A DNA stretch of 58,200 nucleotides from Candidatus Woesearchaeota archaeon (lineage in GTDB: Archaea > Nanobdellota > Nanobdellia > Woesearchaeales > JAGVYF01): contig JAGVYF010000033.1 of NCBI GenBank assembly GCA_018303425.1, positions 1 through 58,200 on the forward strand, in the 5' to 3' direction. Positions 1 through 12,201 of this stretch are shown here, in pieces. The notes beneath the pieces were generated by a model. The model did no database searches and was not told the DNA's origin. It worked only from the letters and a program-made list of their open reading frames with translations. Position numbers and translations under genes: made by a program. The number at the start of each line of letters is the position of its first letter. Position 1 is the first letter of the stretch.

Positions 1-233
1 TGAACGATTTAGAACTGATTTTCACAATGCTTGGTGAAGCATCTACTACAAGAATTGCAAAAGATAAAGATGCTCAAGGATTTATCGAAAACAAAGAAGC
101 GGCAAAGAAAGGCGGAATAGTTGGGGGTGTAGCTAGAAAAGAACTTGAACAGCAAAGTGTTAGAAAAGTATCTACTCCAGAGAATTATCTTACTGAACCT
201 GAAAAAAAGAAAAAACTCCCGCGTCAGAAATAA
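1..233 (+). CDS. DinD/Bro-N family protein, C-terminal fragment (gene starts left of the window)
   Basis: The frame is open from the window edge (codons from nt 3: NDLELIFTMLGEASTTRIAKDKDAQGFIENKEAAKKGGIVGGVARKELEQQS..) to TAA at 231-233. It is a close paralog of the C-terminus of ORF 9845..10690 (HDLELIFTMLGEASTTRIARNKNAKGFIENKDAAAEGGTVAGIARKELEQRS..). Confidence 0.7.
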   Translation, partial: NDLELIFTMLGEASTTRIAKDKDAQGFIENKEAAKKGGIVGGVARKELEQQSVRKVSTPENYLTEPEKKKKLPRQK

Positions 234-8175: not shown

Positions 8176-8700
8176 TCATAACTTACTTTTTACAGCTTTA
8201 TCAGAAATAATTGCGCTATTTCCCGTAGGATCTTCAATAATAATTTTTAATGGTTCTTGACCCCATAATACTTTATTAAGTTTTTTTAATAAATTTTTAG
8301 CTTTTTTCTTTTTATCTTGGTCTTCTTCATTGTCACGTACGCTTTCAATCATATTCATAACTCGATTGATTACTCCTTCAATGTTAGTTATATAGCCATT
8401 TGAACTAGGTCCAGATTCAATTGTCATAATTCGAGGAATTTTTACAGTTGCTTGCGCAGATTTAACAACCCTAATTTTTAGATCTTCTTCACTATTAATT
8501 TCAATAGTAAATTTAGAAGGTTCATGAGTCTCAATTGCTTCAATATCAGATTTGTGGTATTTACATGCGCTGCAACTCATCGAAAAAATATACATCTTAT
8601 TAAAATAAGGTACTTCAACTTCTTGTTCTATAAGGGTTAATGCATTTTCACTACAAATCGGACATTTTTCCCCTTTCAAAATTTCACCAGTTTCATCCAT
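8176..8700 (-). CDS. ZPR1-type zinc-finger protein
   Basis: The motif CPICSENALTLIEQEVEVPYFNKMYIFSMSCSACKYH (CxxC..CxxC around the PYF motif) is followed by the ZPR1 beta domain. Confidence 0.85.
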   Translation of the reverse strand: MDETGEILKGEKCPICSENALTLIEQEVEVPYFNKMYIFSMSCSACKYHKSDIEAIETHEPSKFTIEINSEEDLKIRVVKSAQATVKIPRIMTIESGPSSNGYITNIEGVINRVMNMIESVRDNEEDQDKKKKAKNLLKKLNKVLWGQEPLKIIIEDPTGNSAIISDKAVKSKL

Positions 8701-8762
8701 GCAAATAAAGAAAAGAAATAAGGTATAAAAACCTTGCGGAGTAATTTATAAAAAGTGAGAAA

Positions 8763-8805
8763 GGTTTGAACGAAGTTCATTACCTTGTAAAGGTTTGAAC
8801 GAAGT
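8763..8805. repeat. 29-bp tandem repeat, left part (one full unit plus the first 14 nt of the interrupted unit)
   Basis: GGTTTGAACGAAGTTCATTACCTTGTAAA lies at 8763-8791, followed by GGTTTGAACGAAGT at 8792-8805, which is cut by the island. Confidence 0.9.
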
Positions 8806-8828
8806 CGTATTGGTCACCCTGTAGATGT
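8806..8828. repeat. Left terminal inverted repeat of the island
   Basis: CGTATTGGTCACCCTGTAGATGT. Confidence 0.85.
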
Positions 8829-8912
8829 TAACCGTTGGCTGTTAAGAATTCGGCTGTTTTAAGTCATTTTTGCAGAAAATTGTCCAAAATCTTGTTTCCA
8901 CTCATGTTTGCT

Positions 8913-9356
8913 TCATCCATTCCATATTTTGAATGCTTCATCTTCGTATTTTTGAAAGTCTATTTTGGTACAGTTATTTACCTTGCAGAAATGGTTTGTG
9001 ATATCCTCTTTTGTTAATCTTTCTTTTTTAAGCATATTTTCACCATCGGATGTATGTAACCATAAGCCAACGTGTTTAATCTTATGACAAAACCCACATA
9101 AGTGATGAATAGTATCTAATTTTTGTATGTGATTATCATCATCATAAATCCAGAATTCATGTGCTTCTAATCGAACATTTTCTTTTCCACAAATCCAGTA
9201 TTTTCTGCCTTCTTTTATGAACAATTCACTCTTGAGTTCTTGCCATTTTTGAAGTTTATTCTGTTTTTTGTAATATTGGTAAATACTTGCATACCACACT
9301 GTTAAAGGAACAAGTTCAATAGTTAGCTTAAATTTATCAGTAGTCATTTTTATCAA
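8913..9356 (-). CDS. Small HNH-type (beta-beta-alpha-Me) nuclease-like protein
   Basis: The pattern ..ELVPLTVWY..WICGKENVRLEAHEFWIYDDDNHIQKLDTIHHLCGFCHKIKHVG.. (C..leaHE.W..LC..CH..kH) matches small HNH endonuclease families from memory. It overlaps the upstream ORF by 20 nt. Confidence 0.6.
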   Translation of the reverse strand: MIKMTTDKFKLTIELVPLTVWYASIYQYYKKQNKLQKWQELKSELFIKEGRKYWICGKENVRLEAHEFWIYDDDNHIQKLDTIHHLCGFCHKIKHVGLWLHTSDGENMLKKERLTKEDITNHFCKVNNCTKIDFQKYEDEAFKIWNG

Positions 9357-9858
9357 AGCTTTTTGAAATTTTATATTTTGAATTGATTAGTTTTGCAGAA
9401 GATATTCTGCTTGTCCTAAATTTTCTTATTTCCTTTCGCAGATGGCAATATCCTATAGTGTATTTTGCTGAGGTATAGTATACATCGAGTTTTCTTTTTT
9501 TAAATTCTGCATTTTCCATGTTAAAATACTTAATCTCTACAGTTTTAGACTGCTTAAATGCTTTCTTGAGTGTAGTATAGACTTTTGAGTCAATATTGTT
9601 ATTGTATGGATGATATTTTTTTCTTAGAAATTCTTTATCAATTTCATCTTTAGCTTCTTTGGGCAGACTGTGGTTAATCTTTTTTAGAATTGACTTAATT
9701 TGTTTTTTATCTATTGACGTCTCATATTCATCATCATAGCTGTTATAATCCTCTTCATCATTATTAGGTGTGTCTTCTTCGTATTTTTTTACGAGTTTAT
9801 AGATTATCTGTAATTCAGAAGGAATCAGATGGAGTGATTCTGATTCATTTTTTGTCAT
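9337..9858 (-). CDS. WYL-domain protein
   Basis: The C-terminal half (VEIKYFNMENAEFKKRKLDVYYTSAKYTIGYCHLRKEIRKFRTSRISSAKLI) fits the WYL signature (..Y.igyC.lr...R.FR.sRI..). The N-terminus is acidic and helical with no clear HTH. Confidence 0.55.
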   Translation of the reverse strand: MTKNESESLHLIPSELQIIYKLVKKYEEDTPNNDEEDYNSYDDEYETSIDKKQIKSILKKINHSLPKEAKDEIDKEFLRKKYHPYNNNIDSKVYTTLKKAFKQSKTVEIKYFNMENAEFKKRKLDVYYTSAKYTIGYCHLRKEIRKFRTSRISSAKLINSKYKISKSFDKNDY

Positions 9859-10690
9859 CCTTTAACCTTCTCTTTTTTTGCGACTCGGATTCTTGAAGAT
9901 AGTTGTCGGATGTTGCTATCTTCTCTCCACTTCTTTGCTCAAGTTCTTTTCTTGCTATGCCTGCAACAGTGCCGCCTTCAGCTGCAGCATCTTTATTTTC
10001 TATGAATCCTTTGGCATTCTTGTTTCTTGCAATTCTCGTAGTTGAAGCCTCACCAAGCATTGTGAATATAAGTTCTAAATCATGCATATGGTCTCTAAGG
10101 TTTTCATTTTTTAATCCTTTCAATTTCTTGTACTCAGTTGGAGTCATTCCAAATGTTGCTTTCGAAATTTCGGCTGTAAGAATGGCAAATTCTCTGTCTG
10201 CTATAACTCCTCTTTTCTTCCATTCATCAGTCAACTCATCCCTTATCGCAATGCCTCGGACTCTTTTCTCAATCCACTCTTCAGAATATCCTTTGAATTT
10301 GAAGATTTCCTTCATTCTCTTTTGAGCAAGTTCAGGATTCTCTATTTCCTTAACTCGGTCATAACCTACTTTTGCTAGCCACAGCTTAAATGGTTCAGCT
10401 TTGGGAGAAGGAATAGACTGGATAATCCTAAATGCTCCTTCAGTGTTTACGCAGTTTGTTTCCCTTTTCTTGCTATCTGGAGCAAGAAGCTCAAGTGGGG
10501 TACAAATTGTACCCCAGTTCGCATTCAGAACAGGATCACGGCTGCGCATCTTTTTGACATATTGTTTAGGATCAGCACTATCTGTAAGAATTGAGATTAT
10601 ATCCAAGATAGAGAACCACCACCCATTATTGTGCCAAGTTCTCCTTATGTTCTTTCCCTGAAAGACCACGATAGCTTTATTTGTGTCCAT
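9845..10690 (-). CDS. DinD-like protein with N-terminal Bro-N domain
   Basis: The N-terminus (VVFQGKNIRRTWHNNGWWFSILDIISILT..TNCVNTEGAFRIIQSIPSPKAEPFKLWL) is Bro-N-like. The C-terminus (..LRDHMHDLELIFTMLGEASTTRIARNK..GGTVAGIARKELEQRSG) resembles E. coli DinD from memory. Confidence 0.75.
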   Translation of the reverse strand: MDTNKAIVVFQGKNIRRTWHNNGWWFSILDIISILTDSADPKQYVKKMRSRDPVLNANWGTICTPLELLAPDSKKRETNCVNTEGAFRIIQSIPSPKAEPFKLWLAKVGYDRVKEIENPELAQKRMKEIFKFKGYSEEWIEKRVRGIAIRDELTDEWKKRGVIADREFAILTAEISKATFGMTPTEYKKLKGLKNENLRDHMHDLELIFTMLGEASTTRIARNKNAKGFIENKDAAAEGGTVAGIARKELEQRSGEKIATSDNYLQESESQKKRRLKDDKK

Positions 10691-10693
10691 GTT

Positions 10694-11581
10694 TCAACCC
10701 CCCGAGCTTATAACACCTAATAAACGAGTTAACTCCATCTCAAATTCCCTAGAAACATCAGAAGCCCCACTTAATGCATGAGCGGTTTCATGTAAAAGTG
10801 TTCCTGCATAGTCTTTTAAATTTTTTAATTGATCACGCTTAATAATTATATTCGTTCCATCCCACAAACCTGAAGCTTCACTAAATGAATTATCTAATCT
10901 CATTGTTTCTGAAATTAATACTTGTTTGATGTTACGGGGTTTACCACCAATCAAATCAAAAATCTTGGTTGTTTTTTCAAATATTTCTTTCTCAGGCTTA
11001 TTAAGTTTTGTTGGGTCAACAAATTTGAACTTAAAATTATCATTCCATTCTTGTGTATATTGCCCTAAGTCTCTAATAGGATTACCTGCATAATCTTTTG
11101 TGCCCCTGATTTTTTCCTTAACTGTTTCAGGAATTATCACAACTTGAAAACCGGAATTCTTTGCATCATCAACCATATTTCTGGCGTCAAACATTTCCAT
11201 TGAAGTTAGAAATATTACCTTCTTCAAAGAATTTAATAGCTTACACGCGTGAACTGCAATGTCGATCCAAACAAGTTCATCATGACATTGACCAGAATCA
11301 TATTTTGATAAATCTGATGTCAACAATTCAGCAACCTTTTCAGTTTTGCATTGTAAAAGAACATCTTTTACTCTTTGAGTGTATGCTGTCCTACCAACAT
11401 TAGTTCTTTCTCTGTTCAGAGCTTTCCTCATTATTTTTGTTATTGAAGTAATATTATATGAAAACAAGAAGTTTTCTTCCTCTGCAATTAACAAACCTCC
11501 AACATATATTCTAGAGGTTTTACCTTTTATATAAACTTCTCCAACATCAGTCTTTTCCAATAAATTCTCATTAGAGAACAT
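10694..11581 (-). CDS. HExxH-motif protein (putative zinc-peptidase-like C-terminus), possibly 5'-truncated
   Basis: The C-terminus is ..YAGTLLHETAHALSGASDVSREFEMELT... The N-terminus ..VYIKGKTSRIYVGGLLIAEEENFLFSYNITS.. resembles the middle of longer ATP-binding proteins, from memory and unverified. The frame stays open 114 nt upstream of the ATG with no start codon. Confidence 0.5.
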   Translation of the reverse strand: MFSNENLLEKTDVGEVYIKGKTSRIYVGGLLIAEEENFLFSYNITSITKIMRKALNRERTNVGRTAYTQRVKDVLLQCKTEKVAELLTSDLSKYDSGQCHDELVWIDIAVHACKLLNSLKKVIFLTSMEMFDARNMVDDAKNSGFQVVIIPETVKEKIRGTKDYAGNPIRDLGQYTQEWNDNFKFKFVDPTKLNKPEKEIFEKTTKIFDLIGGKPRNIKQVLISETMRLDNSFSEASGLWDGTNIIIKRDQLKNLKDYAGTLLHETAHALSGASDVSREFEMELTRLLGVISSGG

Positions 11582-11704
11582 TAAGAAGAAATCTTTTACG
11601 GCAGCTATATGCTCATCTTTACAATTCTTTAATATAACTTTTGTACCAATAAATTTGACATCCTCAGTTTCTTCCGAACATCCGCTACTTAACGGTCAGA
11701 CACG

Positions 11705-11727
11705 ACATCTACGGGGTGACCAATACG
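11705..11727. repeat. Right terminal inverted repeat of the island
   Basis: ACATCTACGGGGTGACCAATACG is the reverse complement of 8806-8828 with one mismatch. Confidence 0.85.
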
Positions 11728-11805
11728 GAACGAAGTTCATTACCTTATAAAGGTTTGAACGAAGTTCATTACCTTATAAAGGTTTGAACGAAGTTCATTA
11801 CCTTA
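11728..11805. repeat. 29-bp tandem repeat, right part (rest of the interrupted unit plus about two further units)
   Basis: GAACGAAGTTCATTACCTTATAAA lies at 11728-11751, a full unit at 11752-11780, and a 25-nt unit at 11781-11805 that runs into the sepF stop codon. Confidence 0.9.
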
Positions 11806-12201
11806 ATCTAATTTTTCGGTTTTTTGCGTTCTGTAAATATTTGCAAAAGCAGGCGTTACACAAATCCAGTCATCACCAAATCCTGCTACATCTCCCCCAA
11901 TAGCATCGCAGGTTTTTTTAATCTTATTAATTGCTCTTTTAAGCTCAACAATATCTTTATCTTTTAAAGGTTTAATATTAATAAGCGCAATAGTATTACC
12001 AACTCTTAATGAATCTAAAATATCACGCACGCCTTCAAAATCTTCAATAATAAATGGCCGTACTTGTACCTTTTCATTATTTTTCCCAAAAGATTCTGGC
12101 GCAAGTTCTACATAATCATCTACTAATTCCTCTGGTTCTTCTAATACTTCTGTACTAAATGTTCCCCCTAAACTTTCTTTTAACTGTGAAAAAAATCCCA
12201 T
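11803..12201 (-). CDS. sepF: Cell division protein SepF (archaeal)
   Basis: This 132-aa protein has a flexible N-terminus and a SepF core: VRPFIIEDFEGVRDILDSLRVGNTIALINIKPLKDKD..AINKIKKTCDAIGGDVAGFGDDWICVTP. Confidence 0.8.
   Translation of the reverse strand: MGFFSQLKESLGGTFSTEVLEEPEELVDDYVELAPESFGKNNEKVQVRPFIIEDFEGVRDILDSLRVGNTIALINIKPLKDKDIVELKRAINKIKKTCDAIGGDVAGFGDDWICVTPAFANIYRTQKTEKLD

Follow-up and report, generated by a model that had tools for sequence, protein, structure and literature searches.

What is a 2.9-kb block of four same-strand open reading frames (ORFs) doing between the housekeeping genes sepF and ZPR1 in a groundwater archaeon, and by what means did it get there? The question concerns contig JAGVYF010000033.1 (assembly GCA_018303425.1) of a Woesearchaeota (DPANN) archaeon, of which we analyzed positions 1 to 58,200 (hereafter, the window). 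A sequence-only reading made earlier had described the block as a mobile island delimited by terminal inverted repeats (TIRs) and a target-site duplication (TSD), carrying a coherent four-gene operon and no transposase, and had been unable to match it to any named system. We consider it likely that positions 8806-11727 constitute a non-autonomous, cargo-carrying TIR transposon resembling a mobile insertion cassette (MIC), with a cargo made of three conserved genes and the remnant of a fourth.

Both the TIRs and the TSD were reproduced. A repeat finder and a reading of positions 8400-12200 recovered a 23-bp TIR, CGTATTGGTCACCCTGTAGATGT, at 8806-8828, with its inverse complement at 11705-11727 (22/23 match); together they enclose an insert of 2,922 bp, located inside a 29-bp tandem array. 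These were the only two copies of the TIR in the window, both with 3 mismatches allowed (0 in 100 shuffles) and with 6, and all other long inverted repeats of the window were AT-rich and of poor complementarity. The 9-bp TSD, GAACGAAGT, lies directly outside both TIRs (8797-8805 and 11728-11736), and the in-silico removal of 8806-11736 left an intact unit of the 29-bp repeat, GAACGAAGTTCATTACCTTATAAAGGTTT, just as the sequence-only reading had it. The weaker subterminal similarity that it mentioned is also real: in a gapped alignment, the inverted similarity reaches about 55 bp inward from each end. These end modules hold repeated GGMTGTT..AAG motifs, which by their look are putative protein-binding sites.

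We then consider whether the insert is a genuine feature of this lineage. Exact-protein look-ups with SepF, ZPR1 and ORF1 (the ORF next to the right end) returned about 30 contigs, mainly ENA re-assemblies with a few JGI records and one NCBI metagenome-assembled genome. All of them, 29 independent population contigs among them, had the element at the identical site, and it is therefore not an assembly artefact. As regards the insertion site, these population contigs differ only in the number of flanking 29-mers, which varies on both sides of the element, with either 0 or 1 full units on the ZPR1 side. A ZPR1 search of the GTDB species genomes gave 53 relatives, mostly labelled Woesearchaeota or Nanoarchaeota, with 49-68% identity. 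SepF was found 50-880 bp upstream of ZPR1, with nothing interrupting the pair, in 28 of the 53, and we did not find the cassette genes, the TIR or the 29-mer in the SepF-ZPR1 spacer of any of those 28. Since the conserved pair is unoccupied in these relatives, the 2.9-kb segment is a lineage-specific insertion.

The four ORFs of the element are encoded on the minus strand and packed as had been claimed, with a 3-nt gap followed by 14-nt and 20-nt overlaps; the last overlap is reduced to 11 nt if the ATG start favoured by homologues of the HNH gene is used. Searches against Pfam, NCBIfam, PHROGs and PADLOC gave no match to a transposase, an integrase or Cas1 in any of the four, in agreement with the sequence-only reading. 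By family, ORF1 is a GHKL member, ORF2 a Bro-N/PDC-S13 protein, ORF3 a WYL protein and ORF4 a small HNH protein; a transposase is not among them.

ORF1 had been taken for the gene of a 295-aa "HExxH protein". We identified it instead as the 5'-truncated remnant of a GHKL ATPase gene. The family (3,788 homologues) combines the GHKL ATPase domain PF13589 with PF25856; its close members are about 460 aa long, many with an N-terminal HATPase_c_3 before PF25856, and the Bergerat motifs (ExxxNAxD, DxGxG, GxxGxG) are conserved at residues 34-97 of the homologues. The best full-length relative, P0002 (473 aa, 87% identity to ORF1), has the predicted fold of an Hsp90/GyrB/MutL-type GHKL ATPase. The window sequence is alignable only from codon ~143 (~11674) and translated only from residue 173: the reading frame is open back to 11695, where it is closed by a TGA (11696-11698), and the first usable start is an internal ATG at 11581, which yields the 295-aa ORF. 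The entire N-terminal ATP-binding domain is missing. To judge from these alignments, ORF1 is no complete gene: what is left is the 3' two-thirds of a gene for a ~460-aa GHKL ATPase, and it is probably non-functional. The cut in the middle of the gene coincides exactly with the right end module's inner edge. Full-length relatives adjoin restriction-modification (R-M) genes of the MmeI/Eco57I type (L020) or a tyrosine integrase (L023), and in the neighbourhoods examined, including these two, they were never neighbours of Bro-N, WYL or HNH genes; the closest ones (87% and 80% identity) lie beside neither DinD-WYL-HNH nor a TIR. The idea of a coherent four-gene operon must therefore be abandoned, as one of its members is a remnant whose intact relatives keep other company.

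The remaining three ORFs could be assigned to families. ORF2 matches Bro-N (Pfam PF02498, 3e-12), phrog_15286 (5e-91) and, over its full length, PADLOC PDC-S13 (4.4e-117, residues 1-276 of 281), a single-gene defence candidate whose antiviral function is putative. ORF3 matches WYL (PF13280, 1.4e-10; PADLOC WYL, 3.7e-15) as well as CRISPR-associated WYL models, in which it resembles WYL-regulated defence modules. WYL regulators classically have a helix-turn-helix (HTH) DNA-binding domain before the WYL domain, but no HTH was reported in the acidic N-terminal half of ORF3 by the Pfam and NCBIfam searches. ORF4 matches phrog_5200, "HNH endonuclease" (5.6e-17), and belongs to a small, mostly DPANN family of 103 homologues (mostly 155-180 aa) with the invariant residues C53, C56, H66, E67, C87, C90, H91 and H95 (CxxC...HE...CxxCH...H). 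Its AlphaFold2 (AF2) model (pLDDT 90.5) shows strands at 64-72 and 77-86 followed by a helix at 88-94, that is, a beta-beta-alpha arrangement. The fold matches the HNH protein of phage V18 in BFVD (E = 6e-4), while comparison with the PDB gave no significant fold match (best E 0.18) and no sequence-profile match. The model and the conserved motifs support the placement of ORF4 in the HNH (beta-beta-alpha-Me) family, with predicted nuclease activity. The Bro-N, WYL and HNH assignments of the sequence-only reading are thus upheld, and so is its picture of a mobile insertion of defence-island-type genes.

The window copy of the HNH gene is itself shortened. A premature TGA at 8913-8915, 15 codons ahead of the ancestral stop (8859-8861), removes a conserved C-terminal R/W segment; the ancestral stop abuts the left end module, and the 162-aa form is kept in one contig (fetched as L017 and L096).

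Beyond the window, WYL and HNH homologues are often found on the same contigs. In L089/L090 we found Bro-N (286 aa), WYL (168 aa) and HNH (174 aa) overlapping just as they do in the window, with which they are collinear (69% identity at the DNA level). This trio sits in a defence island that also contains HsdM, PIN, RhuM and more Bro-N genes, and there are no inverted repeats around it. HNH homologues also occur solitary or within type I R-M operons. Only DinD-WYL-HNH is a conserved overlapping trio, recurring also without repeats; the co-occurrence of all four families in other genomes, which the sequence-only reading had proposed to look for, holds for these three and fails for the GHKL relatives, which sit in other neighbourhoods. 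Most plausibly, going by the families involved, the trio would be a WYL-controlled nuclease module of defence or conflict type, with WYL as sensor or regulator and HNH as effector. Literature searches found nothing specific on a Bro-N/WYL/HNH system, on PDC-S13 or on MPN635, and plasmid and phage collections gave only partial matches to the Bro-N and ATP-binding genes.

Other DinD/Bro-N genes occur in the vicinity. A second paralogue lies at window positions 3-215 (plus strand), cut by the window start and about 8 kb beyond ZPR1; the paralogue (276 aa in L011) is 69% identical to the C-terminus of ORF2. In the closest relative, L035, a DinD-like gene is found 3 kb from ZPR1.

End modules and cargo were also detected at other sites. 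L028, a contig from a JGI metagenome (35% GC), contains 55 bp with 96% identity to window 8806-8860. The homology stops at 8860, beyond which L028 goes over into different sequence, a RadC gene preceded by an upstream region of its own; on the outside, the module is flanked by a PD-(D/E)XK gene. L088 (ERZ27254845 k141_838402) is an ENA contig from a study that also yielded several of the population contigs; it shares 93% identity with the window over the stretch that runs from DinD (10257) up to the element's final base (8806). Its left 55-bp module has 86% identity to that of the window, and it carries a diverged TIR, CGTATTGGTCAATCCGTAGATGT, followed by unrelated DNA and a different gene. 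In L088 the same cargo element occupies a second insertion site. Finally, L034 has WYL-HNH at 90% identity, and here the homology ends at 8858-8862, right after the ancestral HNH stop, with no TIR following. From the end of the cargo homology in L034 (8858-8862), the end of the module homology in L028 (8860) and the start of the GHKL homology (~11674), it follows that the cargo begins and ends at the inner edges of the ~55-bp end modules.

The sequence-only reading had proposed a search for further copies of the TIR, and the end modules of L088 and L028 answer to this in part. None was found elsewhere in the window, nor in 0.6 Mb of sequence from relatives with up to 6 mismatches allowed, nor within 8 kb of the HNH homologues L029-L033. 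A 22-nt exact match to the TIR in three contigs (L025 3689-3710, L026 843-864 and L027 2628-2649) lies inside an aldehyde:ferredoxin oxidoreductase gene of a host with 54% GC; counted as one independent event, with ~0.2 expected by a rough estimate, it was judged to be due to chance.

The two insertions of the element can also be traced in the variation of the population contigs. Some of these contain clustered single-nucleotide polymorphisms (SNPs) inside the element, at window 9700-10200 and 8900-8920 (element positions 1556-2070 and 2811-2824), which agree with the L088 allele at 23 of the 25 positions that could be compared. Two explanations fit these patches, namely recombination or gene conversion between element copies, or mixing of their reads by the assembler; under either one, both element copies are present in the same samples. 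One of the patches brings back the full 162-aa HNH.

Near homologues of ORF4, a further arrangement was observed. An HNH homologue with 69% identity is wedged between hsdS and hsdR in a type I R-M operon with SduA_C (L030 8001-8531, L031, L032 4827-5357). This island is bordered by a RadC gene whose DNA is 84% identical to that of the RadC beside the L028 end module, and a short N run lies beside RadC in L030.

We can now outline how the favoured reading, that of a non-autonomous transposon with cargo, would work. Two ~55-bp end modules (the 23-bp TIR plus subterminal repeats) flank 2.8 kb of captured DNA and would be bound by a transposase encoded elsewhere, probably a DDE enzyme cutting its target with a 9-bp stagger. 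This enzyme would have inserted the unit into the 29-bp tandem repeat between sepF and ZPR1, duplicating the 9-bp target. The cargo would be a slice of a defence island: it comprises the Bro-N/DinD-WYL-HNH trio and, from a GHKL gene that lay next to it, the 3' two-thirds that remain after the cut at the edge of the cargo. The joint presence of a 9-bp TSD, TIRs and subterminal repeats marks DDE-type transposition, as known from insertion sequence (IS) families, and it is this combination that points to a DDE-type enzyme here.

Several observations weigh against this reading. An autonomous IS with these ends was not found: exact-pattern scans gave 0 matches in GTDB genomes and 0 in IMG/VR (also with degenerate patterns), and an exact-pattern scan of JGI metagenomes gave L028 as the sole genuine end-module match among the matches listed, and no autonomous IS. 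For this reason, mobilization in trans and the family of the transposase are both things that we infer. The scans required exact matches, and the JGI scan missed contigs L003, L006 and L008, which hold both TIRs, so these negatives are weak. In L028 a second end was not found within 1.5 kb, and instead of a second cargo type this copy may represent a solo remnant. The L088 contig covers one end only of its copy, and so neither a TSD nor the full content. The putative defence role of the trio is drawn from family annotation and gene neighbourhood. The empty site that the sequence-only reading had suggested searching for was recovered at the level of synteny, in other species, and not at the nucleotide level among the about 30 contigs, in which the insert is fixed; nor do the contigs seen give evidence that the element is currently active. 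As for the JGI collection, it appears to be incomplete or masked at this locus, since L003, L006 and L008 were not returned by the scan.

Comparison with known systems shows that the statement of no match to any named system was too strong, as the element is built like a mobile insertion cassette (PMC4337579). A MIC is by definition a set of passenger genes that is enclosed by IS-type inverted repeats and does not itself encode a transposase, and examples include MIC231 of Bacillus cereus, with IS231 ends, and the MICs with TnXax1 ends of Xanthomonas (PMC4337579). Like these, the element has passenger genes between short (<100 bp) IS-type ends, a TSD and no transposase of its own, and different cargo is found behind the same ends (here the window and L088 versus L028, the L088 and L028 contigs having one end each). 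Unlike in MICs, a cognate autonomous IS was not found for its ends by the exact-pattern scans, so that trans-mobilization would here have to be presumed; the host, a DPANN archaeon, and the cargo, a defence-island fragment with a gene cut at its boundary, are different as well.

Other classes fit less well. [quoted passage not shown] The element shares with MITEs, including archaeal ones, its non-autonomous nature, its TIRs and TSD and the need for an external transposase, but it measures 2,922 bp and has four ORFs, which amount to three genes or four. An element made of just the two end modules (~110 bp in all) would look like a MITE; we did not find such a cargo-free copy. With no transposase, recombinase or Cas1 of its own, the element is not an autonomous IS, transposon or casposon. 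In eukaryotes, Pack-MULEs and Ds-type derivatives are TIR elements with a 9-bp TSD, with captured gene fragments, some of them truncated, and with a transposase acting in trans; this likeness is one of analogy only, with no sign here of a Mutator/IS256-type transposase.

How the cassette originated is a separate matter: it could be by internal deletion of a larger transposon or by capture of DNA between two ends. The first route would start from an autonomous cargo transposon with the order right end, transposase (with further genes, perhaps), full GHKL gene, DinD, WYL, HNH and left end, from which the transposase was lost in a single deletion between a point just inside the right end module and codon ~143 of the GHKL gene, in the way that Ds arose from Ac. 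We regard this as a tentative possibility, somewhat short of an even chance. It has in its favour that the GHKL gene is cut in its middle exactly at the inner edge of the right module while the cargo's other boundary lies cleanly at the stop codon of HNH, an asymmetry that one event would explain. However, a longer copy was not found, and the closest full-length GHKL genes, as said, neighbour neither the trio nor a TIR. L088 is silent on this point, as the contig ends inside DinD. The deletion concerns the origin only, and the present-day element would be non-autonomous all the same.

Two more far-reaching readings seem rather improbable to us. The ~55-bp ends may come from a transposon family with an undescribed transposase, or may even be moved by the trio; or the trio may be an uncharacterised archaeal defence system that hitch-hikes on such elements and so spreads among DPANN genomes.

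More specifically, the sequence-only reading had raised the prospect of mobilization by an unconventional nuclease. The element would then move itself, with HNH cutting the ends or the target, Bro-N acting as DNA-binding partner and WYL as regulator. In both independent insertions, that of the window and that of L088, the trio does accompany the end module, the cognate transposase was found nowhere in the scans, and HNH homologues occupy selfish-looking places such as the one between hsdS and hsdR. Yet WYL-HNH at 90% identity in L034 and the trio at 69% in L089/L090 occur without the TIR or other inverted repeats, the HNH homologues of L029-L033 have no TIR nearby, and the end module of L028 lies beside RadC, in unrelated DNA and without HNH. 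Because trio and ends occur independently of each other, HNH is disfavoured as the mover. The window HNH has, moreover, lost its conserved C-terminal segment through the premature stop, and the 9-bp TSD, the TIRs and the subterminal repeats point to DDE-type transposition; we know of no TIR/TSD transposon driven by an HNH enzyme. We thus hold self-mobilization to be very unlikely.

That the segment is a site-specific-recombinase island, or that a chance inverted repeat surrounds resident genes, is scarcely credible, for although the cargo is typical defence-island material and a full-length GHKL relative adjoins a tyrosine integrase in L023, the ends are inverted and not direct, there is no integrase or tRNA target (Rfam matched no structured RNA, and the sole tRNA is 40 kb distant from the element), the 9-bp flanking duplication is target sequence restored by in-silico excision, the end module is found at other places with different flanks, and shuffles gave zero matches to the repeat.

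If the favoured reading is right, this is a clean, well-delimited, cargo-carrying non-autonomous transposon in a DPANN archaeon, from a group whose genomes are tiny and whose mobilome is poorly charted. It would provide one concrete route for defence-island fragments to move between DPANN genomes, and it flags the Bro-N/DinD-WYL-HNH trio as a candidate conflict module. Elements of this type are already known in bacteria, and neither a new mechanism nor a new kind of system is revealed. The features of the element and of its flanks are collected in Table 1.

Table 1. Features of the element and its immediate flanks, in window coordinates.
Feature	Position	Strand	Remarks
ZPR1-side flank	8768..8805		one 29-bp unit and the left TSD copy GAACGAAGT (8797-8805)
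Left end module	8806..8860	+	TIR (8806-8828) and subterminal sequence with GGMTGTT..AAG repeats
HNH-type nuclease gene (predicted; ORF4)	8913..9356	-	147 aa from TTG, 144 aa from ATG at 9347
Small WYL-domain protein, 173 aa (ORF3)	9337..9858	-	acidic N-terminus
Bro-N/DinD-like protein, 281 aa (ORF2)	9845..10690	-	full length relative to family models
GHKL ATPase gene remnant, 5'-truncated (ORF1)	10694..11674	-	homology to full-length relatives begins at ~11674 (codon ~143 of P0002)
Right end module	11675..11727	-	TIR (11705-11727) and ~30 bp of subterminal sequence
SepF-side flank	11728..11805		2.7-unit run of the 29-bp repeat, opening with the right TSD copy (11728-11736)

Two minor observations concern the flanks. 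The 29-bp array is located upstream of ZPR1, and each of its units contains a TATA-like CCTTTATAAGG (on the minus strand, which is the ZPR1 coding strand) and a palindrome, TGAAC-GAA-GTTCA, on which the TSD is almost central. On the SepF side of the element, several independent assemblies of the same population have a nonsense mutation in the cell-division gene sepF (GAA to TAA, codon 53; L013 5744-6142, L014 734-1132, and also L095, L100 and L101, corresponding to window 11803-12201), which splits the gene into ORFs of 52 aa and 75 aa.

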